From Candidatus Uhrbacteria bacterium (lineage in GTDB: Bacteria > Patescibacteriota > Patescibacteriia > UBA9934 > GWF2-40-263): a stretch of 63,199 nucleotides of DNA. Positions 4,520 to 19,519 of this stretch are shown here, one piece after another (the first letter of the stretch is position 1; the number at the start of each line of letters is the position of its first letter). The position numbers were made by a program, and so were the translations under genes. The stretch spans positions 1 to 63,199 of the forward strand of contig JACRJU010000001.1 in assembly GCA_016219925.1 (NCBI GenBank). Direction: 5' to 3'. The notes below the pieces were generated by a model. It made no database searches and was not told the DNA's origin. It worked only from the letters and a program-made list of their open reading frames with translations.

Positions 4520-5745
4520 AGAGGGTTGATCGTAATAGAACCAATATATTCAAATGTTTGATAATCCGGATCTCGGTAATAACCGATGGAGCGACCGAGC
4601 GGCTGAACGCGACGCGTACCGCTATCAAGATAAATAACGTCGTCTTGCCGACGAATGACCATGCCGCTCTCAAACCAATCGAGCAAAGCGCCTTGGGAAA
4701 CCATATCCGCGTTCGCTCTTTGCTCGTGACCTTTTGGCATGATCCATACCGCGCTTCCTTCAATGCCGTAGGCGAACGTTTCTCCGTCTGGCGAAATCGC
4801 AATCGGCTCGAGCGCGAACGAATCATCTTGAAAAACGCGCGTCGCTGAATCATGAGCAAGATCAATTTTATACAAGGTGGTTGGCGCGCCTGGGCTCATG
4901 CCCCCCATCTCGTTTGTGGGATCGTCCACAAGCGCCATTTGGGAAACATACAGAAGCGCTCGATCTGGATCTAAAGTCGTGAAATACGCATGCGGGGTTT
5001 TCGTATCCGCTTCAAGAGCATGAAGCGATACGACTTCTACGACATCGCCGTTTTGTGTAAACAGCTTCCACAGGCGTGGGGCGATAGACCCTTCTCCGGA
5101 AAAAACAGCTGTGAGATAAATCACGGATCCGTCATTGGTGATCGCTGTGGGTTGAAGTTCTCCGGCGTCCAACGCCAATTTTTTATCATCCACGCGAAAA
5201 GTCTGTTGTGTGTCCTGCTCACGATCCCACAAAACAATTGTCCCCGATTTCTGGCTCGCCTCTCCATCGTACACAGAGGCGTAAGCGAGCTCAAATCGGC
5301 CGTTTTTCGAACGCATGCTCCCCCATATTTCAGGAATCTCCTGTACCACGCCATCAAGACTCACGATAGCGGCTCCATTTTTTGAATAGCGATGCACGAG
5401 AAGATCCTCTCCAAAAATAGAAGCGAACACTCCGCCACGTGTACTTTCTGACAAGATCGTGGAAATCACGTGCGGTTCCGACTCGCCAATTTTCCACGCA
5501 TAAAGAGTCGTCTCGTTCACATCATCGTTCGCCCACTCTTGCGAGCCGTAATCCTTCACACGGCCCATTTGATAAATCAGATACGTCCCGGGGTCTCTTT
5601 TCTTTTCTGAAGCCGTCGCGTCCTCAAGCGAAATGGGTTTGATGAATGTAGGCGCATGAAACGATTGCCAGATGAAAAAGGCCACGCCTGCGCTTACTAC
5701 GGCGATCACGAGAAACCCCATCGCTTTTAAAAACTTTATCATCAT
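4516..5745 (-). CDS. hypothetical membrane-anchored protein with beta-propeller-like repeats
   Basis: 409 aa with an N-terminal TM helix (FLVIAVVSAGVAFFIW) and recurring SPDG/TNDGS-type turns. Its stop overlaps the aspS start (ATGA) and it starts 1 nt after the asnS stop. Confidence 0.6.
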   Translation of the reverse strand: MMIKFLKAMGFLVIAVVSAGVAFFIWQSFHAPTFIKPISLEDATASEKKRDPGTYLIYQMGRVKDYGSQEWANDDVNETTLYAWKIGESEPHVISTILSESTRGGVFASIFGEDLLVHRYSKNGAAIVSLDGVVQEIPEIWGSMRSKNGRFELAYASVYDGEASQKSGTIVLWDREQDTQQTFRVDDKKLALDAGELQPTAITNDGSVIYLTAVFSGEGSIAPRLWKLFTQNGDVVEVVSLHALEADTKTPHAYFTTLDPDRALLYVSQMALVDDPTNEMGGMSPGAPTTLYKIDLAHDSATRVFQDDSFALEPIAISPDGETFAYGIEGSAVWIMPKGHEQRANADMVSQGALLDWFESGMVIRRQDDVIYLDSGTRRVQPLGRSIGYYRDPDYQTFEYIGSITINPL

Positions 5746-7992: not shown

Positions 7993-8385
7993 CTATAGGT
8001 GATCGATATAACTTTGCACAATCAGCATGGCGGCGAGCGCATCTTCTTGCGCTGGTGATCCTTCTTCGCGTTGCAAGCGGATGCTTTCGGAGGTGGTATA
8101 GGATTCGTCTTCTTCAACGACAGGAATGGATACCGCGCTTGAAAGCGCTTTGATGAACGCGCGGGTCTTTTCAAGTTGTACGGAAGAATAAGGCCCCCCG
8201 GTCGCAAGCGGAACACCAACAACGATTACATCAATGTCTTCAACGCTCGCACGCTTGACGAATATCCGGATCGTCTCTTCGCCCGCATTGGGAACCACCT
8301 CAAGCGGTACAGCCACATGCGCCTCGCTATCCCCAAACGCGAGCCCAATTTTTTTATCGCCAAAATCAATGCCGAGGATGCGCAT
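7993..8385 (-). CDS. ruvX: Holliday junction resolvase-like protein RuvX/YqgF
   Basis: MRILGIDFGDKKIGLAFGD N-terminus; 130 aa. Confidence 0.9.
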   Translation of the reverse strand: MRILGIDFGDKKIGLAFGDSEAHVAVPLEVVPNAGEETIRIFVKRASVEDIDVIVVGVPLATGGPYSSVQLEKTRAFIKALSSAVSIPVVEEDESYTTSESIRLQREEGSPAQEDALAAMLIVQSYIDHL

Positions 8386-10861
8386 ACGCTTCTTTTATTC
8401 GCTCCGTCAATCTTTTCAATCCTTTCTCTGCAAACGCCCCCGGGTTGGAGATCGGTGTCACGGACGGATACGCCGCCTGTGCCACCGTTTGCAAATTCAC
8501 ATCATCTTCCGGTCCAATAAGAAATAAATCAATGGGAATCCCCATCTCCTGCAATCGTTTGGTTGATTGTTTCACCGCACGGGGGTTGTCCGAATCTCCA
8601 TCGGCAGTGGCAATCACAAAACGTCGTGTTTTCCATCCGTGCTTTTGCAAGGCCGGCTTTTGCTTTCGCATCTCATCCTGTTCGCGCAGAGAAACGGCGA
8701 TCTGTTTTTCAATCAGCGCGAGCGCGGCATGATCCGGCGTTGATCCGCCCGCTCCCGCATCCAAAGCACGATAAAGGATCAACTGTTCTTTTGGCCCCCA
8801 ATTTTCCGTTAGAGGAAGAACGATCTCTGTTTCTGCCCCAAGCACAACCACGCTAATCTTAACCGGCATGGGCGCCTTGAGTTTGTGCTGGGACTTTCGT
8901 GCCGTCACCGAGGCGTTCATGCACGAATCAACGAGCAAAAATACCATATCGCGCTGGGCATCAACTTTTTTCACTCCGCCAAGCGTCTCATCCATAGACC
9001 CGCTCATGTCAGCCGACACATAAACCTCATACCCGCCGAACCATTTTTCTTTTTTCCGATCCGTTTCCTCCCGCTTGCCGATCAACGGATCTTTTTCTCC
9101 AGCCAGGATTTCAATATAGCCGGATACAAGTTCGTCTGGATCGATTTCGTCCATTTTGCTCATTTGCACCGGTCCGCGATCAACAATCGCTTCACGGACA
9201 TTTTCACGCACAAGCGTCTGCCACTGACGATCCGCATCCAAAAGAACGCGCGCATACTTTTTGCGAAGCGTCGCGATCTTTTCCAGCACCTCTCGCGCCT
9301 GCTCGGGCGTGCACTCGGCCTCGCGCGCGTAGCGCAAAATGGGATCCTCTTCCTCCTTTTGTTTTAATTCCTCTTGCTCCAACTCCTCAAGTTTCTTATC
9401 CAATGCTTCCTGACTCATGAGCTCGGCCTCCTGCGCCCCATAATCCCCCTCGCCTAAATCTTCCTGTTGCTCTTCTTGATCGACATTTGGATCACCCGCA
9501 GGCGTAGCGTCAAGCCGCACCCACTCGTGTGAACCCGTATCCCAAGCAAACGCCCATGCATGGCGATTGCTCTCAAGTAACAAGGCCTCGCCCGCCTTTG
9601 ACTTTGTGCGCACACTGTGCCCGCCGGCAAACCGCGCGTGCAAACCAAGTTTCGTCAACAGTCGAACGAGGAGCGTATTCGATTCATCGCATTTGGCCTT
9701 TTTGTGTTCCCAAATTTTTTCAAAATACGCGGACGAATCCGCTTTATAAACACCTTCCCACTGAGGATCCTGATCATACTCAAGATGTTTGTGAATGATC
9801 GAAGCGATGCGGCGTGTTTTGATGCCGTCTGAAACATTTTGCGACATCACTTCCTGTGCCGCCTCGAGAAGCTCCGGCGGAAAACGGTCGTTAACTTCTT
9901 CGATCGTTTCATCCGGCGGCGCAAGATCAATCGCATCCGCTGAAGGAGCAATCACAACCGAAAACGTACCCGATGTTTCATCGCCAACGCGCACGCGCAC
10001 AATGCCGTCCTGATCGCTCTCAACAACCGCGTTATCAAACCCCTGAAAACTCGCGACATCCACTCCCCACCTGCGCGGCAGTTTCACTTTTCCGTGACCA
10101 TTTTGCACGCGCGAGCGGTACACGCGTTTGCGCGACACCTCAAGCGATTGGCTCTCCACCTCTTGAAATTGCCGTGGAGATTTTTTCCAGGTGAGCGTTG
10201 CGGGATCATAACGATCATACACATCATCCATCACATACCCTCCCTGAAACGGCGCGATGGTTGCCACCGCCTCGTCCGACAAGCCCTCGCCCTGTTCCTG
10301 CTGTGGCCCGCGGTGTGGGGAGTATTCGTCTTCGTTATTCTCACCGGTCACGTCCGTGCCATCGGCCTTCTCGGTTGATTCAACCGCCTTCTGCACGAGC
10401 CGTCTGTCACGCGAGCGCAAAAATTCCAAGCGCGGCAGGAGCTTGTTCTGAACATAATTCGCTTTAATATCAAAGCCAATATCCGAGTCGGCAAGTGCGG
10501 CAAAAAGGTTTACTGACCCATCGCCGACTTTCATTTTCTGAAGCCCCGCAAGATGTCTTTGGACGATTGGATCTAATCCAAACTCGTTTGCGTCCGCTTG
10601 AGGATCATGAAGCAAACGCCGCATCCCATCAAAAAAATCCCGTTCGCTTGGAAGCGCGTCGCGATCCACTCGAACGGATCGTCCAAGCAGATGTCCCTCC
10701 ACGAGCGAACGCACATCCGCTGGGATCGTCTGTTTCCATTCTTTGTATCCGCGCAGATGTTCTTTAGAAACAACAACATCCGGAGCAGTCTCCTGTTCTG
10801 TTTTGGTTTCCGTTTTAATGCCGAGCGCCTCCAGCGGCACCTGTTGTTCAGGAGTAGGCAT
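8366..10861 (-). CDS. large multidomain protein with a transglutaminase-like cysteine protease core and a C-terminal vWA domain
   Basis: 831 aa. The Cys-His-Asp core is KCDESNTLLVRLL ... NRHAWAFAW ... WVRLDATP. An acidic coiled-coil linker follows. The vWA MIDAS motif is VYVSADMSGSMDE (DxSxS). Confidence 0.7.
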   Translation of the reverse strand: MPTPEQQVPLEALGIKTETKTEQETAPDVVVSKEHLRGYKEWKQTIPADVRSLVEGHLLGRSVRVDRDALPSERDFFDGMRRLLHDPQADANEFGLDPIVQRHLAGLQKMKVGDGSVNLFAALADSDIGFDIKANYVQNKLLPRLEFLRSRDRRLVQKAVESTEKADGTDVTGENNEDEYSPHRGPQQEQGEGLSDEAVATIAPFQGGYVMDDVYDRYDPATLTWKKSPRQFQEVESQSLEVSRKRVYRSRVQNGHGKVKLPRRWGVDVASFQGFDNAVVESDQDGIVRVRVGDETSGTFSVVIAPSADAIDLAPPDETIEEVNDRFPPELLEAAQEVMSQNVSDGIKTRRIASIIHKHLEYDQDPQWEGVYKADSSAYFEKIWEHKKAKCDESNTLLVRLLTKLGLHARFAGGHSVRTKSKAGEALLLESNRHAWAFAWDTGSHEWVRLDATPAGDPNVDQEEQQEDLGEGDYGAQEAELMSQEALDKKLEELEQEELKQKEEEDPILRYAREAECTPEQAREVLEKIATLRKKYARVLLDADRQWQTLVRENVREAIVDRGPVQMSKMDEIDPDELVSGYIEILAGEKDPLIGKREETDRKKEKWFGGYEVYVSADMSGSMDETLGGVKKVDAQRDMVFLLVDSCMNASVTARKSQHKLKAPMPVKISVVVLGAETEIVLPLTENWGPKEQLILYRALDAGAGGSTPDHAALALIEKQIAVSLREQDEMRKQKPALQKHGWKTRRFVIATADGDSDNPRAVKQSTKRLQEMGIPIDLFLIGPEDDVNLQTVAQAAYPSVTPISNPGAFAEKGLKRLTERIKEAYAHPRH

Positions 10862-10912
10862 ATCACTTCTGAAATCTTAGCAAAACTCGATAAGATTTGC
10901 GTAGAAATCTAC

Positions 10913-12040
10913 TTAGAGAACAAAATTCAAATAATTTTCCGGATGAATCACATCAAAAGTTGCGTGCGGGTACGCATCCTGAAATACACCTGGAACACGT
11001 GTTTTCTTTTGAGATGCCCATTTGAATTCGTAAGCGCGCACTTGCCCTTCCCCTTCCTCTATCAAATCAATCTCCTGACCTTCATAAGTGCGCCAAAAAT
11101 ACGGTGTTGCAAAGATACTCTGATAAGAACGTTTTTTCAATCGTTCTATGAATAAGAAATTTTCCCATAGTTCGCCAACATCAGACCGCTGAGTGAGATC
11201 ATTAAATTGAGAAATGATAGCGTTACGAAGTCCAGTGTCATAAAAATAATACTTGCTTTTTCTCACGACTTCACTTCGCAAGTTTCGACTGAATCCTCCA
11301 ACGCGAATAACCACAAAGGCTTTTTCAAGCAGATCGAGATAACGTTGAACCGTCTTGACTGAAAGCCCAAGCTGACGCGCTAACTCTTGATAAGAGACTT
11401 CTTTTCCGATCTGAAACGCAAGCAGTTTCAAAAGATCCAATAGATACTTTGAGCTCTTAATTTTCTCGAGTGCGAGAATATCTTTTAGAAGATACGCCTC
11501 TGAAAGTTCTGTTAATAGTTCTCGTTTTTGCACTTTGGTTTGTGCAGTTAATATCTCCGGATAACTTCCAAATACCAACAAATCCGGTACATGTTCTTTG
11601 AGTTCAAATTGATTCTGCTCAAAATTTAACTCAATCTGTGAAACCGGAAAAAGGGTGAGGGTTCGTTTCCTCCCTGTGAGTGGCTCACCGATTTGGTTTG
11701 AGAGTTCAAAAGATGATGAACCAGTGGCAATGACCCTTATATCCGGTCTTTGATCAACAATGATCTTCAATCCTGTTCCGATGTTTGGTATCTGTTGTGC
11801 TTCATCAATAACAAAAAGATCGTAACCTTCCAGGTATGAAAGAATCGTCGGAAAATCTTGTGATGATAGAATTTGGCGTGTACGAATGTTATCTCCGGAG
11901 TCAAATTTATACTTAAATTTTGTCTGTTTTAAGTAGGCATTTATTATCGTTGTCTTCCCAACACGTCTTGGACCATAAATAACAAGAACACGACCTGGTA
12001 GCAAAAACTGCTCAAAATCTTGATAAATGCGTTGAATCAT
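10913..12040 (-). CDS. AAA-type ATPase (AAA_14/DUF4143-like)
   Basis: 375 aa with Walker A GPRRVGKTT and Walker B LFVIDEAQ, plus a C-terminal DUF4143-like region. AT-rich, about 37% GC on a 60-nt hand count. Confidence 0.75.
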   Translation of the reverse strand: MIQRIYQDFEQFLLPGRVLVIYGPRRVGKTTIINAYLKQTKFKYKFDSGDNIRTRQILSSQDFPTILSYLEGYDLFVIDEAQQIPNIGTGLKIIVDQRPDIRVIATGSSSFELSNQIGEPLTGRKRTLTLFPVSQIELNFEQNQFELKEHVPDLLVFGSYPEILTAQTKVQKRELLTELSEAYLLKDILALEKIKSSKYLLDLLKLLAFQIGKEVSYQELARQLGLSVKTVQRYLDLLEKAFVVIRVGGFSRNLRSEVVRKSKYYFYDTGLRNAIISQFNDLTQRSDVGELWENFLFIERLKKRSYQSIFATPYFWRTYEGQEIDLIEEGEGQVRAYEFKWASQKKTRVPGVFQDAYPHATFDVIHPENYLNFVL

Positions 12041-12048
12041 ACTTAAAC

Positions 12049-12077
12049 ATGGTATCGTAAATCCACATTTTTGTCAA
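12049..12077 (-). promoter_or_regulatory. sigma70-like promoter for the AAA ATPase gene, giving a near-leaderless transcript
   Basis: Minus strand reads TTGACA (12077-12072), a 17-nt spacer, then TACCAT (12054-12049). The -10 element ends 8 nt before the ATG at 12040 and there is no SD. Confidence 0.4.
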
Positions 12078-12100
12078 AATTTATGGATTATGGATTGCGC

Positions 12101-12228
12101 CGGGAGAGCACGAGACGCACGCCCAGATTGTCATTGCGATTGTCTCGATGATCCTTGTCAACGTTCGCGGCTCCACCGTTGTCGCGGTTACCGCCATTGA
12201 GACCATTGCGGTGGCCGTCGTCGTGCGC
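12101..12228 (-). repeat. DGR template repeat (TR)
   Basis: 128 bp aligned without gaps to 13891-14018 (offset 1790). All 18 mismatches are T on the plus strand here, which is A on the coding minus strand. In the VR frame it encodes 8 Asn (AAC/AAT) codons. It is non-coding, with an in-frame stop upstream. Confidence 0.9.
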
Positions 12229-12441
12229 TCCCTGTGTGCGTGGCCAAATATTCCACCAAACGACGACGCATCATCGCTTTGCCTTTCTTCGCCTCGCGCA
12301 CCGCAATCTTCAACATCCATTTGCAAGCGCACGCGATATTGAATCGCTTCTCGCCACACAAACGGACAGGGGTAAACGGCGCAAAAGCAGTCGAAACCAC
12401 TCATGCGTTCTCTAGCCGACCGACTTTATCGTACCCTATAA

Positions 12442-13410
12442 TCACAATAAAAAACAAAAAGACTGAAGGAGCCGCTTATCAAGCTCACGCCTGGCGGTTC
12501 CTATGAGCAGTCCATTGTAACTCGCCAAAGTATCGTGGCTATGGATATGCCGCATCATCCTTTGTCGCGTGGACGGCCGTAAAACCTGATGATCAGAAAA
12601 TAAAACATGACCAAGCCAATCTATTCCCCACGAAGTTTTACGAATAATGATTTTTTTAGGATGTAGTCGCAACTTTAATTTATTTTCCAAACACGACGCG
12701 ATCGGTACAATCAGATCAGTTGCGTCTTTTTTTGTCTGGCAAATCGCAAGGAAATCATCGGCATAACGAACATAATGTCTCAACTTCAAATCGTGCTTTA
12801 TGTGACGGTCGAGTTCATGCAAATACACGTTTGCAAACAGCTGGCTCGTGAGGTTCCCAATAGGAAGACCTCGTCCGGCTTGTGTCGAATAACTTTCAAT
12901 AATCACCTTTAACAAAGCGGATAATCGGCAATCATAGACGTTTCGTGATAAAAGCGAAAAAAGGATAGTGTGATCAACAGAGTCAAAAAATTTCTGTACA
13001 TCACATTTGAGAACCCAGCACTCGCGCGACCAATTTTTTGTTGCCTGCCTCAAAGCTCTGTGAACAGCATGGATGGATCTGTGCTGACCCAAACCCGGAC
13101 GGCAGGAGAATGAACAATCGAGCCAGCGACAATGAAAAGCCGGAAAAAGCGTATTGTAAACAAGACGGTGCACAATTCTATCGCGAACGGCGGCTTTATG
13201 GATCACTCGACGTTTCGGATCATGTACAATAAAGCGACTGTAACTTTCATGAACGTAAGAACCCGTAGAAAGGTCACGCCAAATCGAAATTAATTCGTCT
13301 TCAAGATTCGCGGCAAAAAACTGAACATCTTGTTTTTTCATCTTGCCTTTGCTGAAATCTAACCACGCTTGATAAACATTTTCTATCTTAATTATGTCTT
13401 CAAAACACAT
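12442..13410 (-). CDS. DGR reverse transcriptase
   Basis: 322 aa. RT motifs are DVQKFFDSVDH, LPIGNLTSQLFANVYL (the DGR-specific I/LGxxxSQ signature) and YVRYADDFL. Confidence 0.9.
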   Translation of the reverse strand: MCFEDIIKIENVYQAWLDFSKGKMKKQDVQFFAANLEDELISIWRDLSTGSYVHESYSRFIVHDPKRRVIHKAAVRDRIVHRLVYNTLFPAFHCRWLDCSFSCRPGLGQHRSIHAVHRALRQATKNWSRECWVLKCDVQKFFDSVDHTILFSLLSRNVYDCRLSALLKVIIESYSTQAGRGLPIGNLTSQLFANVYLHELDRHIKHDLKLRHYVRYADDFLAICQTKKDATDLIVPIASCLENKLKLRLHPKKIIIRKTSWGIDWLGHVLFSDHQVLRPSTRQRMMRHIHSHDTLASYNGLLIGTARRELDKRLLQSFCFLL

Positions 13411-13439
13411 ACATCAACAAACATTCATCGAGAACTTAC

Positions 13440-13850
13440 GTGAACTGTCCAGTAACACGCCCCCCCCCCGCTACGGACAAATTATCCGCTATCCCGATCA
13501 TTCATGAGCTCGGTTGTCTTTATCTCATCCTCCACAACGCGATTCGTGATTTTCAAAAGCTTGAGCGATTCACGCTTGGCACGATGATTGAAAAGATACT
13601 GCTTGAATGTATCAAAAACTGTTTTATTTCTACCATGGCTCCACCAGAACAAAAGTTCGATGAACTCATTCACGCGTCTGCGCTGTTTGATACTTTAAAA
13701 CTTTACATCAGAATCGCGGTGAATGTTCACTGCTTAGAACAGAAAACGTACATCAAACTCATCCCGCGTTTAGGAGAAATCGGACGTATGCTTGGTGGTT
13801 GGTTGCAAAAAACAAAATCACTAAATCCAAACACAAGTTCCAAATCTTAA
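13440..13850 (+). CDS. avd: Avd-like accessory protein (four-helix-bundle / 23S rRNA-IVS protein family)
   Basis: 136 aa from a GTG start and predicted all-helical. LYLILHNAIRDFQKLERFTLGTMIEKILLECIKN and a C-terminal IGRMLGGWLQ resemble Avd/four-helix-bundle proteins. It sits between the target and the RT but on the opposite strand. Confidence 0.6.
   Translation: MNCPVTRPPPATDKLSAIPIIHELGCLYLILHNAIRDFQKLERFTLGTMIEKILLECIKNCFISTMAPPEQKFDELIHASALFDTLKLYIRIAVNVHCLEQKTYIKLIPRLGEIGRMLGGWLQKTKSLNPNTSSKS
13460..13469 (+). repeat. C10 homopolymer at the 5' end of the Avd-like gene
   Basis: Ten consecutive C. Losing one C would fuse an upstream ATG ORF (13394) to the Avd-like frame. Confidence 0.9.
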
Positions 13851-13877
13851 TCCAAATTCGATCTCCGATTCCAAATC

Positions 13878-16838
13878 TCATGAAGATTTACGGGAGAGCA
13901 CGAGACGCACGCCCAGATTGTCATAGCGAGCGGCTCGAGGATCCCTGCCAACGCGCGCGGCTCCACCGTCGCCGCGGGAACCGCCAATGAGACCACGGCG
14001 GCGGCCGTCGCCGTGCGCGTAGTAGCCGTCAAAATGAGTCCAGAGGTTTTTGTTGCCGTAGGATTGGGTCTTTGCCGCTCTTGCGTACTCATCATAGCGC
14101 ATGAGACGCAGTTCAAAGTCATCAGGGTTTTGATTGGTGTTTTTAAGAAGTTCTGTGATGACTGCTTTGGCTTGTTGAGATTGGAAACGTTGATCATGAT
14201 TGGTCCAAAGAGCAATGTTTATTCCGTTTCGGGTGATATTTGTGGGGTCTTGGGTGTTAAAGAGGGTTTGAAGAATCTTCTTGGTCTGTGGAGTGAGAGC
14301 CGATTGTTTTTCTTGGTCGTTGGTGTAATCAAATTCAGGGTAATCCATGGCAAGAAGAAAAGCATCTGTGCCGAAGTCTGGGATGTGCTCTTTGGCAATC
14401 TTGAGAAAATCTAGGTCATCATTGTCAATCGTCTGTGCCAGGCGATGCTCCGTAAGAGCTTGAAAGAACCACATGGACTTCTCTGGAATGTTTGGAAGGT
14501 CAGGACAGTTTGTGTTCCATTTGTCTTGAAGAGCTGTTTTGTTTACTTTCCACTTCTCTGTTGTAAGGACCGCGGGCGGAGTCGTTGTGGAGTCAGGATC
14601 TCTATCGCCGATGTTGTAATGAGTGACAAAAGCAGAGTCGCGGTTGTACACGGCCATGAAGATCTCTTGAGCTTTCTCGTGCTTTTCAATCTTGAGTTCA
14701 GAGAAGCCGTATTCTTTTGCTTTGGCTTTGTCGTAGGCAAAGGGAGTGCGGGATTCAGCGTATGCGCCCGGTTCTGGAGTTGGAGGGAGATCAAGATCAT
14801 AAAAATCTCTTAATCTTTCCGGGTCAAAAAAGCTTGGAATGTCATCTTTGGCAACTAAAATGGCTTTGGTCTTGTCCACGGCTTTGGCTGTTTCATCATA
14901 GAGGAATCCCAGAAAGATTCCTTGTTCCGGCATGGTCGCGGGAGCCGTGTCTTTACGCTTGAGGGACATTCCAGGGTCCCAACCGTCCTTGAGTGGCCGT
15001 TTGACGTACTGAAACACGACATCACCCGTGTTTGGATCTAAGAAATCAGTGGCTCGTAAAAGAGGTGGAGGTTCTTTGGCGCGTGGGCGCTCCACATTGG
15101 GATTGAGATAGCCCACGTCTTTTGGAGTCAAAACTCTCGCTCTGGGCTTGCTGACTTCATCAAGATTGAGTTGAGTGGCAAGGATATTGAAAACTTCAAA
15201 GTACTTTCTCACAAGGGTCTGTTCTTCTTGGGGGAATTGTGAGAGGTACTTTTCAAGTTTCGCTTTGAAGAACACGGCAAGGTGCTCTTTGCGGTCGCGT
15301 GGAGAAGCTTTATATTGGTCAATCCAAGAGAGCACAACGCCGGGGTCCAAAATAAAGGAAGAAAGATGAAACTCGGCTTTGGGTTTGGAGGGGTCTTTCT
15401 TATGAAGAACGGTGTCTTGGTGAGAGAATGCTTTAAAGAGTTCTCCCCAAGCCTGTGCAAATCGGTAAAGATACCCCCCGTGTGTGGGGTCTTCATCAAG
15501 ATGGGATTGACCGGTGGCGCCGTCTTTAATCCAAGCCGGTTCTAGCTCATTTGGGGTGACAGCGGTGAGCCGTCCGGTCTTTTGGTCCATGAGGGCGGCG
15601 AGCATCACTTGATACAACTCCGGGTTGTCTTTTGTCTGTTCAAGGTATTCAACATTGATGACGTTTCCGGCAAATTCACGCTTGGTCTCAATACCTGTTT
15701 CCTCTCGGTCGTAGCGTTCAGATGGTGGATTGCCTGCGGCAAGGTAGAGGAACCCCGGTTCAACCGTAACGGTAAGCGGGGTGCCGGGAATAGTCACTTT
15801 ACGTCCGGCTCTGGCTTCTGAAACAAATTTGAGAATCTGTCTTTGAACAGAGGTGGGGCGGGTGTTAAACTCATCGTCAAAAAAGATGCCACCGCCTTTG
15901 GATGGCTGGTCGTCAATGGAAGAGGACTTGCCGGTCATGGCTCGAAGAAGAGGACCGTACTCGTAATAAGTCTTCCCTTCTTGAATGGCCGGGCTTGCGA
16001 GCAAACGCACAAATTTCTCTTGGTCGCCTCCCACCGTGCGTTCTGGCTCTCTTGAGGCGAGCTCCAAAGATGCGGCGCGGGCAAGAGCTGTCTTTCCGGT
16101 ACCGGTTTCCCCCATCATGGCGGCAACCGGACGAGAGGTCAGGGCTCCTTGGAGGACTTCTTGAAGGAGTCTTTGGCGTGACTTAGTCCAAATAAAACCC
16201 GTAGTACGCAGTTGGTCTGCGTAAGATTTTACGGTGTCATATTCAATGAGCGCGGCAACATCGGGATTCTTGTGTTTGATGGCTTCGAGTCTTTGTTCAA
16301 GGTCTTCGACTTTGGATTCGAGAAGCGAACGCTTCATCAGATGCACTGGCTTGGGTTCTTGACCTGAACGTTTGAACATCTCGGAGAGCAGTGCGATGAG
16401 CTTTCCGCGTTCATCATCAAGCTGTTGCTCCAAGGACTTGAACTCTTCGTAGGAGCCGTTCACTTCTTCATTTTCTCTCTCGTGCCGCTTGAGCTCTGAC
16501 CCAAGGGTTTGGGAGACATCGGGATCTTTAAGGAGTCGACGGTATACGGCAAGCGAAAAAGCATAAGATTCATCTTGCTCAAAAATATCTAACAAATCTT
16601 CTCTTTTGACCCGACGTAAATCCTCTTGCAACTGCCGACGTAGAGCATAGGCCCATTCCACTCTCTGCGCTTTGTTTGTGTCTCCATGATCAAATTGTGT
16701 CAAGTAAGCGCTCGCCATCTCTTCGACCTCCTTAGGAACCCCGAGATAATCGACCGGAAGACCCATGATGGTTGAAAAATCATACGCGGGTCGAGCTTCT
16801 TTTGGTTGTTCATGGATTCCTGATGGACGTTCGGACAT
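13878..16838 (-). CDS. DGR target protein: AAA_5/MoxR-like ATPase fused to a C-terminal variable C-type-lectin/FGE-like module
   Basis: 986 aa with Walker A MMGETGTGKT, Walker B GGIFFDDEFN and sensor-like AAGNPP. The C-terminus WTHFDGYYAHGDG...GGSRG...YDNLGVRLVLS carries the VR. Confidence 0.85.
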   Translation of the reverse strand: MSERPSGIHEQPKEARPAYDFSTIMGLPVDYLGVPKEVEEMASAYLTQFDHGDTNKAQRVEWAYALRRQLQEDLRRVKREDLLDIFEQDESYAFSLAVYRRLLKDPDVSQTLGSELKRHERENEEVNGSYEEFKSLEQQLDDERGKLIALLSEMFKRSGQEPKPVHLMKRSLLESKVEDLEQRLEAIKHKNPDVAALIEYDTVKSYADQLRTTGFIWTKSRQRLLQEVLQGALTSRPVAAMMGETGTGKTALARAASLELASREPERTVGGDQEKFVRLLASPAIQEGKTYYEYGPLLRAMTGKSSSIDDQPSKGGGIFFDDEFNTRPTSVQRQILKFVSEARAGRKVTIPGTPLTVTVEPGFLYLAAGNPPSERYDREETGIETKREFAGNVINVEYLEQTKDNPELYQVMLAALMDQKTGRLTAVTPNELEPAWIKDGATGQSHLDEDPTHGGYLYRFAQAWGELFKAFSHQDTVLHKKDPSKPKAEFHLSSFILDPGVVLSWIDQYKASPRDRKEHLAVFFKAKLEKYLSQFPQEEQTLVRKYFEVFNILATQLNLDEVSKPRARVLTPKDVGYLNPNVERPRAKEPPPLLRATDFLDPNTGDVVFQYVKRPLKDGWDPGMSLKRKDTAPATMPEQGIFLGFLYDETAKAVDKTKAILVAKDDIPSFFDPERLRDFYDLDLPPTPEPGAYAESRTPFAYDKAKAKEYGFSELKIEKHEKAQEIFMAVYNRDSAFVTHYNIGDRDPDSTTTPPAVLTTEKWKVNKTALQDKWNTNCPDLPNIPEKSMWFFQALTEHRLAQTIDNDDLDFLKIAKEHIPDFGTDAFLLAMDYPEFDYTNDQEKQSALTPQTKKILQTLFNTQDPTNITRNGINIALWTNHDQRFQSQQAKAVITELLKNTNQNPDDFELRLMRYDEYARAAKTQSYGNKNLWTHFDGYYAHGDGRRRGLIGGSRGDGGAARVGRDPRAARYDNLGVRLVLSRKSS
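13891..14018 (-). repeat. DGR variable repeat (VR) with IMH-like invariant 3' end
   Basis: Forms the last 128 nt of the coding sequence of the 986-aa target (stop at 13878). 14 codons differ from TR. The 34 bp at 13891-13924 are identical to TR 12101-12134. Confidence 0.9.
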
Positions 16839-17697: not shown

Positions 17698-18330
17698 TCA
17701 GGATGACAGTGAGGATACGATCCTTTCGAACACCTCGTTCACATTTCCCTGTCCATCTACTCGGCGCACGATACCTTTCTTCTCATACTGAGCAATCACC
17801 GGCGCGGTGTCTTTTTCATAAATATCCAACCGCCGCGCGATGGCCTCGGGAGTGTCGTCGTCGCGTTGATACCACTGTCCGCCACACGCACAGATATCGC
17901 CGGGCTTGATCCCATCGCTGACACTACCCACTTTATTACAGACCTGACAAGTGAGCCGTCCTCCCAAACGCTTGAGCGATTCCTCGCGCGGAATTTCAAT
18001 GACAACCACATGGGTCGGCGTATCAAAATCAAAAGCGGCGTATTGGGATAAATTACGAGGATAGCCGTCAAGGATGTATCCGTTTTGGGTGTCGGGTTTT
18101 TCGAGTCGTCGCTTCAAGAAAAAAGCCGCGTCGACATCCGAGATAAGTTCTCCGCGCAAAATAATTTGGTTTAACTTTTCGCCGAGTGCGGAGCCAGAAG
18201 CCACCTCTTCGCGAATAAGTTGGCCGCTGCCAAAAAAGGGAATGCTAAATTTTTGAGACAAGCGTTCTGCTTGCGTCCCTTTTCCGCTCCCTTGCGGACC
18301 CATGAGGAGAATTTTGTGTGAATTGGACAT
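17698..18330 (-). CDS. adk: adenylate kinase
   Basis: Starts at MSNSHKILLMGPQGSGKGTQ (P-loop) and has a Zn-lid CQVC...CACG. The ORF extension up to 18567 is a GC-rich read-through artefact. Confidence 0.9.
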   Translation of the reverse strand: MSNSHKILLMGPQGSGKGTQAERLSQKFSIPFFGSGQLIREEVASGSALGEKLNQIILRGELISDVDAAFFLKRRLEKPDTQNGYILDGYPRNLSQYAAFDFDTPTHVVVIEIPREESLKRLGGRLTCQVCNKVGSVSDGIKPGDICACGGQWYQRDDDTPEAIARRLDIYEKDTAPVIAQYEKKGIVRRVDGQGNVNEVFERIVSSLSS

Positions 18331-18364
18331 ACGAGGGCTAGTGTAACAGAAGAAGTACGAAATG

Positions 18365-18386
18365 AAAAAAGAGCCTTGGGAGGCTC
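18365..18386 (-). terminator. intrinsic terminator after the 2OG oxygenase gene
   Basis: Minus strand reads gagcc-tcccaa-ggctc followed by T6, 9 nt after the stop codon. Confidence 0.5.
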
Positions 18387-18394
18387 GGGAGAAG

Positions 18395-19519
18395 TCATGC
18401 GACGCGCAGGCGAGCCATGCGCGCGCGGTACTGCGGTGGAACGCGATCGCCACGCGCAAGCTCCGAGGACGGGAAGAGCTTGATCCGTGCGAGCTCGACG
18501 GACTCGAAGTCGCCGGCGTAGATCGGCGGGTACTGCAGAAGCGTCTGTGCGGTCGCGAAGTGGCCAAGCGGACGCATCACCCAACGGGTGGCGAAATGAA
18601 CGAAGAGGTTGGAGCTGACTCGAATGGGCCGTTCGCCGCGAGCGACGATCGCCGCGGCATCGGCAAGCGCCTCCGGAGTTCCCAGCACCTCGTGCTTGCC
18701 CGCGAAGAAGCGGCCGCCCGTCACCCACTCGAGCGACTTGCCGGCCTGGGCGAGCAGGCACCCGTCTGGAACCTCGACCAGGAACGGTTGTCCATCGAGC
18801 GTCCAGCAAACCAGAGCGCGTATGTTCGTCTGGCCGTGCACGGTGATCGCGTTGAAGTCGTAGTGCAGGCCTGCGAGCACCTGACCAAGCTGAACCGTTG
18901 CGAAGTTGCTCCCGGTCGGCCCCAAGATGTGCGGACCGCCCTCGAGCATCCGAGACAATGTGCAGCGCTTGAGTCCCATGCCGATCGAGATGATCTGCAT
19001 GATGTCGTAGGCGGCCGCGAGCATGCACCCGCCCCATGTGTTGAGCGGGCCCGCGATGTGTGCGAACCGTTCGGGGATCTTGGCGCGGGTGTTGACGTTG
19101 GGCCACGGGGTGTTCGTCGGACGGACCCCGAGCGCCCACATAAACCGCGCCTTGAGGTCAGGGCGACCAGCCACAGTCAACGGACGATGCTCGGAAGGCA
19201 GGGTCGCCACCCACGCGGAGTGATCGAGCGGAAGTTCGGTGCCAGGCGGGGTCATCCCGAACTGGTAGCCGACGTCCTTTCCATCGAGCGCCGCCTGCTC
19301 CTGCGGTGAAGCGCCATGAATACCGATCATGGTGCGCCGGAAGTTCTCCTGAATCCGGGACGTGACGCGCGCGTCCCGCAGGCAGATGACCCCGAGGCGT
19401 GCGAACGCTCCCGTAACCTCGACCAGCTCGCGCTCGGTCATCTGGCCGGCTCGAAACCGATCCAGATCTACGACCGGAATTTCCGGCCGCGTGTATCGCA
19501 GGGGAAAGGGTGTCTCCAT
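18395..19519 (-). CDS. 2-oxoglutarate/Fe(II)-dependent oxygenase (isopenicillin N synthase-like)
   Basis: 374 aa with an HxD...H facial triad (GLHYDFNAITVHG ... FFAGKHEV) and an RxS motif (PIRVSSNLF). Strong SD: GGAGGA then 4 nt then ATG. About 68-70% GC on hand-counted 60-nt samples. Confidence 0.7.
   Translation of the reverse strand: METPFPLRYTRPEIPVVDLDRFRAGQMTERELVEVTGAFARLGVICLRDARVTSRIQENFRRTMIGIHGASPQEQAALDGKDVGYQFGMTPPGTELPLDHSAWVATLPSEHRPLTVAGRPDLKARFMWALGVRPTNTPWPNVNTRAKIPERFAHIAGPLNTWGGCMLAAAYDIMQIISIGMGLKRCTLSRMLEGGPHILGPTGSNFATVQLGQVLAGLHYDFNAITVHGQTNIRALVCWTLDGQPFLVEVPDGCLLAQAGKSLEWVTGGRFFAGKHEVLGTPEALADAAAIVARGERPIRVSSNLFVHFATRWVMRPLGHFATAQTLLQYPPIYAGDFESVELARIKLFPSSELARGDRVPPQYRARMARLRVA

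Follow-up and report, generated by a model that had tools for sequence, protein, structure and literature searches.

In CPR bacteria, AAA-ATPase-fused variable proteins are reportedly the commonest DGR target architecture (Dore 2024, PMC10907252, citing Paul 2017 Nat Microbiol; Wu 2018 NAR, PMC5758913), and those with CLec domains have been suggested to transduce signals sensed by their C-terminal region (PMC10907252). The 986-aa DGR target in the window—the whole 63,199-nucleotide stretch analyzed here, a contig of an uncultured, groundwater-type Candidatus Uhrbacteria bacterium—belongs to this class (‘UVR4’/category g1 in Wu et al.). It shares with the described members their host organisms, a P-loop/Midasin-like AAA domain ahead of a C-terminal VR, and a CPR-type cassette whose avd/TR/RT arrangement is unlike that of the Bordetella phage.

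Three further groups of systems are related. MoxR–vWA(DUF58-type)–YebA/TgpA operons, predicted to be ATP-dependent degradation or protein-processing systems (Zhang and Aravind 2012, PMC3495828), combine the same three domains, which are strictly associated in genomes. However, they place the transglutaminase-like domain in a multi-TM protein, use three separate genes (with MoxR and vWA sometimes fused) and lack a DGR, whereas the window has a soluble fusion of transglutaminase-like and vWA domains and a MoxR subunit that bears a hypervariable domain. The vWA-MoxR-VMAP systems with DGR-diversified FGS/CLec domains (Kaur 2020 eLife, PMC7159879; Dore 2024 PNAS, PMC10907252) combine MoxR, vWA, peptidase and DGR as here, and their targets are likewise predicted to be cytoplasmic and read as diversified recognition. 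In those systems transglutaminase-like peptidases are rare, the variable domain lies on the vWA protein or a separate target, a third VMAP protein bears the effector, and the hosts are multicellular cyanobacteria, gammaproteobacteria and actinobacteria; here, by contrast, it is the ATPase that bears the variable domain, the loci have no conserved VMAP gene, and CPR bacteria are the hosts. Finally, NorQ/NorD, CbbQ/CbbO, RavA/ViaA and Rea1(Midasin)–MIDAS have the same AAA+ fold class and vWA/MIDAS partner fold, and the ring-plus-plug geometry of such characterized couples, a binding mode proposed to be general (PMC9976466), would be expected for the window pair. These couples differ in serving one fixed client with a vWA subunit that has no enzymatic domain, in lacking a hypervariable domain, and in sharing 11–21% sequence identity with the window proteins.

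AAA-fused CPR DGR targets, MoxR-vWA-transglutaminase operons and DGR-linked MoxR-vWA conflict systems are thus already published, as is the notion of MoxR/vWA-linked DGR targets as sensors (Kaur 2020, PMC7159879; Dore 2024, PMC10907252), and the first-pass annotation of this DNA overestimated the novelty of both the fusion and the sensor idea. The accessible text of Wu 2018 and Dore 2024, and Paul 2017 as cited by the latter, contains no mention of an obligate transglutaminase-vWA partner, a post-map Uhrbacteria locus, or DGR-less pairs.

The window carries a complete DGR (12101-14018), comprising an RT, an Avd gene in reversed orientation and a TR/VR pair of 128 nt. The RT gene (12442-13410, reverse strand, 322 aa; RVT_1 E=5e-21 by Pfam, PADLOC RT E=1.6e-51) shows the motifs YADD (12754-12765) and IGNLTSQ (12841-12861) in its translation; the TR (12101-12228, reverse strand, 128 nt) sits 3′ of it, and the VR (13891-14018, reverse strand, 128 nt) covers target codons of about 941-983. 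A 107-aa ORF spanning the TR (12081-12404) was rejected as a gene. VR and TR are 86% identical, with all 18 mismatches at TR adenines and at codon positions 1 or 2, and variation is confined to the last ~40 residues of the target. Adenine is present in 22 TR codons, of which 19 are recodable to give about 10^16 possible variants, and reading the TR in the VR frame yields 8 AAY Asn codons. This DGR is described here from one sequence of its population, and no second VR was found in the whole window; the A-biased TR/VR relation recurs in eight other loci (L003, L005, L006, L008, L009, L010, L015, L016). The avd gene (13440-13850, forward strand, 136 aa; bAvd E=9e-15 by Pfam, NCBIfam DivGenRetAVD E=1.9e-14), a cassette part missing from the first-pass annotation, is convergent with the target gene, a reversed orientation common to every related DGR locus. 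Directly 3′ of the target stop lies a degenerate TTGGA-type short-repeat array (13805-13865, reverse strand) that overlaps the final avd codons; clean arrays with conserved spacing occupy the equivalent site in L003, L005, L006, L010 and L016. The array may be a DGR cis element.

The target gene (13878-16838, reverse strand) encodes a helical/coiled-coil N-terminus, a MoxR-class AAA+ module, a conserved middle and a C-terminal variable domain. The N-terminal region (16143-16784, reverse strand), defined from the homologue alignment consensus, a listing of N-termini and model secondary structure, carries the short conserved motif (Y/F)D(L/F)STI.G at residues 19-26 followed by long helices at residues 36-232. 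Within the AAA+ module (15429-16133, reverse strand, about residues 236-470) lie Walker A GETGTGKT (16089-16112, residues 243-250), Walker B FFDDEFN (15864-15884, residues 319-325) and sensor-1 AAGNPP (15723-15740, residues 367-372), all on the reverse strand; Pfam AAA_5 matches residues 241-377 (E=3e-7, passing the curated cut-off), which together with the TR/VR, RT and Avd bears out the earlier claim of a DGR diversifying an AAA_5/MoxR-like fusion. The motifs proposed in that annotation are not degenerate: G243/E244/G246/G248/K249/T250, D321/D322/E323, N370 and R375/R378 are unchanged across 36 target homologues, and G248, K249, E323 and N370 are kept in 100/100 cluster representatives with 19-60% identity to the window protein. 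In the AF2 model (pLDDT 85.9), beta-hairpins precede Walker B (residues 281-294) and sensor 1 (residues 347-358), and the best Foldseek matches are NorQ (TM 0.74), CbbQ, Rea1 and McrB, with phage MoxR/CobS-like ATPases also matched structurally. None of the 36 homologues has a TM segment or signal-like N-terminus, as had been claimed for the window protein itself, and the target is a cytoplasmic AAA+ protein of the MoxR type, its catalytic motifs intact.

The variable domain (13881-14258, reverse strand, about residues 861-986) is alpha/beta in the model and ends ...LGVRLVLSRKSS. It had been called lectin-like, a label that gained no support, as no CLec/FGE match was returned by Pfam, a PDB-sequence search or the Foldseek top 50; Wu et al. 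(PMC5758913) likewise left the VR fold of such targets unassigned. A CLec-like fold is therefore an assumption, and since these searches gave the fold no match, the predicted ligand-binding role of the domain is taken from DGR precedent.

The partner gene (8366-10861, reverse strand, 831 aa) encodes a transglutaminase-like core (9506-9859, reverse strand, residues 335-452; Pfam Transglut_core E=7e-8) with the triad C391, H434 and D451, and a C-terminal vWA domain (8378-9049, reverse strand, residues 605-828) with the MIDAS motif DMSGS (8996-9010, reverse strand; D618-x-S-x-S...T708...D754). In the AF2 model (pLDDT 84.2), the best Foldseek match for the core is TgpA (E=1.3e-9, TM 0.65), the protein of the operon described in PMC3495828. 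The vWA domain is weak by Pfam (VWA_2 E=0.095) but clear by fold and MIDAS motif, matching the NorD vWA domain (NorQD complex), the Rea1/MDN1 MIDAS domains and CMG2, and the earlier description of a transglutaminase-vWA neighbor holds. The catalytic triad is invariant across 33 partner homologues; in a wider set of 61 ORFs reaching about 24% identity, the cysteine and histidine are each kept in 60/61 and the aspartate in 61/61, with the MIDAS motif essentially invariant. No TM segment or signal-like N-terminus was found in 32/33 homologues, and the exception (P0049, N-terminal maximum 19-residue hydropathy 2.04) looks like a mis-called start. The partner is a cytoplasmic transglutaminase-like/vWA protein whose triad and MIDAS motif are intact. 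Domains of the transglutaminase-like type may cleave peptides, form cross-links or simply bind; the invariant triad argues for catalysis, of either kind.

Gene neighborhoods revealed an obligate pairing of the two genes, in line with their earlier proposal as one module: the partner is present in 17/17 target-seeded loci with usable flank, and an AAA5-family gene lies within 3.3 kb in 15/15 partner-seeded loci whose flanks reach 3.5 kb or more on each side. The pairing spans several CPR lineages, down to 24-35% identity, and occurs in two gene orders, the target preceding the partner in Uhrbacteria and the partner directly preceding the target in Peregrinibacteria/Peribacteria. Across 11 loci, the pairwise identities of target and partner correlate (r=0.96). 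These sequence patterns support a functional coupling of target and partner. That the target acts alone beside a mere syntenic neighbor is a reading we consider close to refuted. It could appeal to the roughly 3 kb (RT, Avd, TR, DUF4143) separating the genes in the window and to the weak Pfam detection of the vWA domain, but every informative locus shows the adjacency, whichever of the two genes seeds the search, and it survives low identity, order inversion and relocation; a vWA protein is also the classical partner of a MoxR-class ATPase.

In Uhrbacteria-type contigs (window, L001, L003, L005, L007, L008, L009) the pair occupies one slot after secY-adk-map, also beside ruvX-recO (the L011 contig ends after the target), with mean identities of 0.67 and 0.61 against 0.75 for secY. 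In the window, 31 nt separate the end of map from the target downstream, and none of infA, rpmJ, rpsM, rpsK, rpsD or rpoA was recognized on reading the ORF list, agreeing with the first-pass placement of the block directly after map in lieu of the alpha-operon genes. Given the fixed slot and near-secY conservation, however, the earlier label of accessory insertion is misleading: the pair is no recent arrival. In L001, L007, L014 and L018 the pair has no DGR cassette near it, the first being an Uhrbacteria-slot pair from which the DGR is wholly absent; the variable parts of the Uhrbacteria locus are the RT/Avd/TR cassette and the DUF4143 gene only. Such constancy would suit a lineage-specific MoxR/vWA maturation factor, modeled on NorQD, CbbQO, RavA-ViaA, Rea1 or an archaeal virus tail chaperone, in which the DGR adapts the pair to a variable client: a cellular complex, which might be a host-attachment structure or, because the pair follows the ribosomal superoperon, something ribosome-related. 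Conservation nearly matching secY and map, persistence of the pair without a DGR in several loci, and the fact that every experimentally characterized MoxR/vWA couple is a maturation/remodeling factor (PMC9976466) all favor this housekeeping chaperone. We nonetheless judge it improbable, as about 10^16 receptor variants would be superfluous for a housekeeping client, the invariant triad suggests enzymatic output over pure chaperoning, and outside Uhrbacteria (L010, L012, L013, L014, L015, L017, L018) the pair is located elsewhere, so that the ribosomal neighborhood is lineage-specific.

The DUF4143-type gene (10913-12040, reverse strand, 375 aa) encodes an AAA_14/DUF4143 ATPase with an HTH (Pfam; PADLOC PDC-S01 E=7e-147) and does lie between target and partner as annotated, but it is not a conserved component. 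It is missing from most loci, sits in three different positions where present, and has plasmid-borne homologues in unrelated bacteria as a PDC-S01-type stand-alone gene; its patchy presence and shifting position rule it out as a module member, and it is an unrelated low-GC passenger. Computed GC is 39.1% for this gene and 42.2% for the RT gene, above the 33-37% earlier estimated for both. DUF4143/PDC-S01 genes lie near the pair in the window, L005, L007 and L025, other defense-type or mobile neighbors include a PhdYeFM-type pair (L003), PDDEXK_3 (L001) and AbiEii (L017), and in L019 integrases adjoin a distant relative. Some lineages carry an extra short target consisting of the variable module alone, resembling clade 5A loci (Dore 2024).

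The recurrence of such neighbors and the short second target can be read as signs of an immune sensor-effector, NLR-like or abortive, in which the variable domain is the trigger: a phage or invader ligand would switch the ATPase, releasing or activating the vWA-tethered enzyme, which would then attack own or invader proteins generally and not the bound ligand. DGR-diversified sensors with MoxR and vWA are the published reading of VMAP ternary systems (PMC7159879, PMC10907252). This account is possible but tentative: a third VMAP-like component and a recognizable toxic effector are both absent, the fixed chromosomal slot and near-housekeeping conservation in Uhrbacteria are unlike typical defense islands, and the observations fit trigger and substrate roles alike.

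The reading we prefer, with confidence about evenly balanced between acceptance and doubt, is a conserved cytoplasmic two-protein machine of CPR bacteria, in which a MoxR AAA+ motor with DGR-retargeted client choice works with the transglutaminase-vWA partner. Modeled on the solved NorQ/NorD and Rea1-MIDAS couples and the predicted MoxR-vWA-transglutaminase degradation operon, the ATPase would assemble as a ring onto which the partner’s vWA domain docks, a physical complex suggested by gene order and analogy. The C-terminal domain would grip a client, ATP would be spent on remodeling it, and the remodeled client would pass to the transglutaminase-like active site for cleavage or cross-linking. 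By rewriting about 19 codons of this domain through adenine-specific mutagenic retrohoming, the DGR would change the client or ligand engaged, with intracellular foreign (phage) or host-derived proteins as likely clients. In the classical MoxR/vWA model it is the vWA protein, not the ATPase, that recruits the substrate; as the variable domain here is on the ATPase, the division of labor may differ. Counting against this machine, an anti-phage system would not usually show the fixed synteny and near-housekeeping conservation seen in Uhrbacteria.

While the fusion of a motor to a variable domain was itself already known, no description of the obligate two-gene form with a constant transglutaminase-vWA partner was found in the accessible literature; with the motor constantly beside this partner, the pair resembles a re-targetable protein-processing or sensing machine.

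In the window, a long ribosomal superoperon (rpsL ... rplO, secY, adk, map) on the minus strand lies upstream of the open reading frame for the 986-aa AAA+ protein diversified by the DGR (13878-16838, minus strand; hereafter the target), which is followed by avd (13440-13850, on the strand opposite to the target), a reverse transcriptase gene (12442-13410, minus strand), the 128-nt template repeat (TR; 12101-12228, minus strand), an AAA_14/DUF4143 ATPase gene recognized by Pfam and PADLOC (10913-12040, minus strand), the gene for an 831-aa transglutaminase-like protein (8366-10861, minus strand; hereafter the partner), and then ruvX, recO and asnS. The variable repeat (VR) paired with this TR occupies 128 nt within the target (13891-14018), and across the 128 nt compared, 18/18 TR-VR mismatches fall on adenines of the TR and affect the first or second codon position. 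The TR has 8 AAY codons when read in the frame of the VR; adenine occurs in 22 TR codons, of which 19 can be recoded, so that about 10^16 different proteins are possible. TR and VR, examined for an IMH/IMH* boundary, have a GC-rich 3' end in common and diverge directly after ...CTCTCCCG, and alignment of homologues reveals that the positions templated by TR adenines vary freely. DGR-type reverse transcriptases are marked by a YxDD catalytic motif together with an [I/L]GxxxSQ motif, and the enzyme found here (RVT_1, E=5e-21) carries YADD at residues 216-219 and IGNLTSQ at residues 184-190. The accessory protein Avd matches Pfam bAvd (E=9e-15) and DivGenRetAVD (E=1.9e-14, with a score under the NCBIfam equivalog cut-off). 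No second VR for this TR was found in the window, where Rfam and tRNA searches likewise had no matches, and A-biased TR/VR pairs were recovered from eight further loci. With adenine-only TR/VR differences, reverse transcriptase and Avd all present in the window, the DGR reported in the first-pass annotation is solid.

Directly behind the target stop codon, on the side of the convergent avd, we additionally found 5-8 short repeats of the TTGGA type in an array (window 13805-13865, minus strand), which recurs in loci with homologues on other contigs (L003 12725-12775; L005 13021-13070; L006 ~4705-4755; L010 12829-12880; L016 4722-4756; L007 11940-11962; L018 5014-5048). The spacing of TTGG starts is kept (6,7,6,12,7,6), an analogous TTTGRHC array is found in L008 and L009, where the C-terminal VR module is of type B, and TTGGA-type arrays also stand behind targets in two loci with neither reverse transcriptase nor Avd nearby. 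Tandem Repeats Finder gave no result on the array. In the Bordetella phage DGR the corresponding position holds an inverted repeat; a search for a hairpin 3' of the VR yielded weak structures at most, the spot being occupied by the TTGGA-type array, itself no hairpin. This array may be a putative cis element for retrohoming.

In a 50%-identity representative library, the target family counts 614 clusters with a cut-off of E<=1e-3 and 164 with one of E<=1e-30; the target itself matches Pfam AAA_5 over residues 241-377, above the curated threshold. Walker A (GETGTGKT), Walker B (DDE), sensor 1 (N370) and the arginines R375/R378 are invariant in the alignment of 36/36 target homologues, and K249, E323 and N370 remain invariant in 100 cluster representatives with 19-60% identity to the window protein. 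A PDB sequence search with the target family profile returned matches at P-loop level at most and the corresponding search with the partner profile returned none, so we turned to fold comparison. The AlphaFold2 model of the target, for which the family alignment served as input, has high confidence (pLDDT 85.9) and places beta-hairpins before Walker B (residues 281-294) and before sensor 1 (residues 347-358), in keeping with the helix-2 insert and pre-sensor-1 hairpin that characterize the helix-2-insert clade of MoxR-class ATPases. Its top Foldseek match in the PDB is NorQ (E=1e-6, TM 0.74), followed among the best matches by NorQ bound to the NorD vWA, CbbQ, Rea1/Midasin, McrB and dynein; its matches in the viral set are phage ATPases of the MoxR/CobS-like kind. 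Based on the AAA_5 match, the invariant catalytic residues, the hairpins in the model, and the NorQ, CbbQ, Rea1 and phage MoxR fold matches, the ATPase is MoxR-class and very likely active, and by analogy we predict that it forms a MoxR-type hexameric ring that binds a vWA domain. NCBIfam and PADLOC searches with target and partner gave nothing beyond noise, and a crude hydropathy scan found a TM segment or signal-like N-terminus in no member of the target family.

The model also contains an alpha/beta domain at the target C-terminus, around the VR, whose motif ELRLxxxDEYxRAA...G(V/F)R(L/P)V presumably recalls FGE-type targets. The C-terminal VR types of the target family number at least four, and the C-terminal module is also found alone or on other AAA_5 proteins. 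In a search for a C-type-lectin (CLec) or FGE-sulfatase fold, none of six C-terminal types had a Pfam match at E up to 10, the profile of the C-terminal alignment (A4) had no PDB sequence match, and no CLec structure appeared in the top 50 Foldseek matches against the PDB and viral models, a set dominated by the AAA+ domain. The "lectin-like" description that the variable module had been given therefore stays an assumption, with the last ~125 residues lacking any Pfam, PDB-profile or listed fold match. The VR fold of the CPR "UVR4" class was likewise hard to assign (Wu et al. 2018; PMC5758913).

In the partner, Pfam Transglut_core matches residues 335-452 (E=7e-8), and the C391/H434/D451 triad is invariant in the family alignment, being kept in 60-61 of 61 full-length partner ORFs that reach down to about 24% identity. 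The MIDAS residues (D618-x-S620-x-S622, T708, D754) are conserved in the same 61 ORFs, with T708 present in 55/61, even as Pfam is nearly blind to the vWA domain of the window protein (VWA_2, E=0.095) and records PF00092 for several homologues. The best fold match of the AlphaFold2 model (pLDDT 84.2) is the transglutaminase domain of P. aeruginosa TgpA, and its C-terminal domain matches CMG2, the NorD vWA in the NorQD complex, the Rea1/MDN1 MIDAS and BatB. Transglutaminase-like and vWA domains are fused in a single polypeptide. This polypeptide is devoid of hydrophobic segments in 32/33 homologues (19-residue hydropathy maximum <1.6); the exception, homologue P0049, reaches 2.04 at an N-terminus that is probably a mis-called start.

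The first-pass annotation had proposed surveying whether homologous targets co-occur with vWA or transglutaminase genes, and the two adjoin in all informative loci. Scanning annotated contigs and GTDB genome contigs locally with family HMMs, we found target and partner side by side in 17/17 target-seeded loci with enough flank. Conversely, 59 metagenome loci were recovered from a partner seed, and an AAA5-family gene lies within 3.3 kb in 15/15 of those flanked by 3.5 kb or more on either side; in each partner-seeded locus without such a gene, the contig ends on at least one side. As the two sets overlap (L030=L001, L034=L010, L040=L017, L029~L013, L058=L062), these counts together represent roughly 27 distinct informative loci, with zero exceptions. 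Pairing holds across two gene orders, target - (avd, RT, TR) - partner in Uhrbacteria-type loci and partner immediately upstream of target in Peregrinibacteria/Peribacteria, and a vWA protein is still present upstream of a 25%-identical target relative in a mobile element. Pairwise identities of target and partner co-vary across 11 loci (r=0.96). Chance adjacency is effectively excluded, and a two-subunit MoxR/vWA machine, argued by analogy with characterized relatives, is the best-supported reading of the pair.

Several loci depart from the simplest layout. The sole arrangement not obviously fitting either usual gene order is L069 (3-3920), in which the partner is followed by avd and RT with 1.2 kb between and no AAA5 gene there; the contig ends upstream of the partner, where the ATPase may lie. 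A ~325-aa protein stands between partner and AAA5 target in a more distantly related lineage (L058 10412-11392; also L052, L059, L066 and L067) and consists of the C-terminal variable module alone (type B, ending ...LGVAFSRSL), so that each of these loci has one short and one long target. Tandem paralogous targets were also observed. Those of L008 (4279-7050 and 8087-10804) are 100% identical over the last 280 nt, and a single TR corresponds to both, with mismatches at A alone; those of L007 (8980-11934 and 13247-16267) have 3' ends only 76% identical, with no RT nearby.

We also examined whether the module is core or accessory. The pair follows secY-adk-map in all Uhrbacteria-type contigs (window, L001, L003, L005, L007, L008, L009), the contig of L011 ending after a target in the same slot, and is followed by ruvX, except in L003, where ruvX comes before and recO after. 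Mean pairwise identities among Uhrbacteria-type loci are 0.67 for the first 620 target residues and 0.61 for the partner, compared with 0.75 for SecY and 0.72 for map. In L001 the pair occurs with nothing between the two genes and without RT or Avd, and L007, L014 and L018 likewise have no DGR cassette (RT, avd and TR) nearby. Given the fixed slot, the near-secY identity and the DGR-less copies, the pair is an old, vertically kept feature around which the DGR cassette and passenger genes vary. The ribosomal neighbourhood itself is lineage-specific, as the pair is located elsewhere outside Uhrbacteria. The view that the block is an accessory insertion in the ribosomal operon consequently holds for the DGR cassette and the DUF4143 gene and fails for the pair. 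A housekeeping chaperone role would agree with this synteny, but is at odds with the hypervariability of the target, and a two-subunit MoxR/vWA machine remains our preferred reading.

Further observations concern these contigs. Several records with this locus bear the labels Gammaproteobacteria, Methylomirabilis or Eisenbacteria (L006, L007, L016, and homologue P0008), which are probably binning or naming errors; L007 scores very highly and has the secY-adk-map synteny of Uhrbacteria-type contigs, and the cassette in L006 and L016 is of the same CPR type. Within the window, a 374-aa ORF between secY and adk (18395-19519, minus strand) has 65% GC against a window average of 51% and weak 2OG-Fe(II) oxygenase matches (Pfam E=0.004; PDB 3oox E=1.8e-5). 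Since adk directly follows secY in related Uhrbacteria loci, the ORF has the appearance of foreign DNA inserted into the spc operon, specific to the window. The mechanically called adk ORF (17698-18567, minus strand; 289 aa, TTG start) has ~80 extra N-terminal residues overlapping the high-GC insert, and Pfam ADK starts at its residue 88; the true start is probably the Met before SNSHKILLMGPQGSGKG.

The DUF4143 gene between TR and partner, noted in the first-pass annotation as lying between the two large proteins, is a recurrent passenger. It is a full-length match to PADLOC PDC-S01 (PDLC04789, E=6.7e-147, residues 1-374), a candidate defence family of AAA_14-DUF4143 architecture, and has a GC content of 39%, compared with 51% for the window. 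Besides the window copy, we found copies in L005 (8811-9965), L025 (10510-10815) and L007 (6533-7714, 7726-8973 and 12080-13237); these genes have GC below their surroundings, and three copies are 75-81% identical to each other. A role as third component was rejected in view of the absence of the gene from most loci, its three different positions (before the target in L005 and L007, between tandem targets in L007, after the TR in the window), its lower GC, and its relatives on hundreds of plasmids in unrelated bacteria. This pattern suggests a mobile or hotspot-seeking gene.

Comparison with published systems places the target in the known group of AAA-fused CPR DGR targets and sets the pair apart from two related architectures. 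In the VMAP ternary systems (Kaur et al. 2020), a third protein, VMAP, carries an effector at its N-terminus and the vWA protein bears the variable FGS domain, whereas here the variable domain is on the ATPase and the neighbourhoods compared share no third, VMAP-like gene either between target and partner or next to them. In the MoxR-vWA-YebA/TgpA operon (Zhang and Aravind 2012), the transglutaminase-like domain resides in a multi-TM protein and the three components are separate genes, whereas the partner is soluble and has its transglutaminase-like domain fused to vWA. Because of the VMAP gene missing from these neighbourhoods, the VR on the ATPase and the soluble, vWA-fused transglutaminase-like domain, the module belongs to neither the MoxR-vWA-transglutaminase operon nor the DGR-linked MoxR-vWA conflict systems, and a full-text literature search, the scope of which excludes Paul et al. 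2017, returned no description of the two-gene form.

How the pair might work can be drawn from two precedents. In NorQ/NorD, one vWA monomer sits as a plug in the pore of the hexameric MoxR ring, a mode proposed as general (PMC9976466), and for the MoxR-vWA-transglutaminase operon Zhang and Aravind proposed that vWA recruits, MoxR unfolds and the peptidase cleaves (PMC3495828). On the basis of this docking mode and division of labour, the ATPase ring would dock the vWA domain of the partner and hand a bound client to its Cys-His-Asp site, with client specificity set by the DGR-written C-terminal domain of the ATPase. Should this re-targetable processing scheme hold, the system would also be a candidate programmable protein-recognition scaffold. 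The main rival, equally compatible with the present data, is a model in which the pair acts as sensor and trigger, already published for DGR-linked MoxR-vWA-VMAP systems (PMC7159879, PMC10907252). The observation as a whole was confirmed, and the interpretation first attached to it, a programmable sensor-effector module, is supported only in part. As a tentative extension of the docking-and-transfer scheme, one that we consider rather improbable, CPR may carry a vertically inherited, DGR-programmable machine for targeted protein processing, in which the hypervariable receptor of a MoxR ring captures any given protein inside the cell, of phage or host origin, and delivers it to a docked transglutaminase-like enzyme, the two-gene form being the ancestral minimal version of larger MoxR-vWA conflict systems. 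If true, adaptive protein-level recognition would be coupled directly to enzymatic destruction or cross-linking.

CPR DGR targets rank with the most abundant hypermutated proteins of groundwater microbiomes, and earlier work on them stopped at "AAA ATPase fused to a variable domain". Our findings turn this bare annotation into a testable two-protein system, a MoxR-class ATPase with a constant, specific partner whose triad and MIDAS are intact, and connect three literatures, those on CPR DGRs, on the unexplained but widespread MoxR-vWA-transglutaminase operon, and on DGR-linked ternary conflict systems. Collectively, they indicate that the pair is stable and conserved in its lineage, with gain or loss confined to the DGR cassette and passenger genes, and they bring experiments on function within reach for a very common class of hypermutation targets in CPR.
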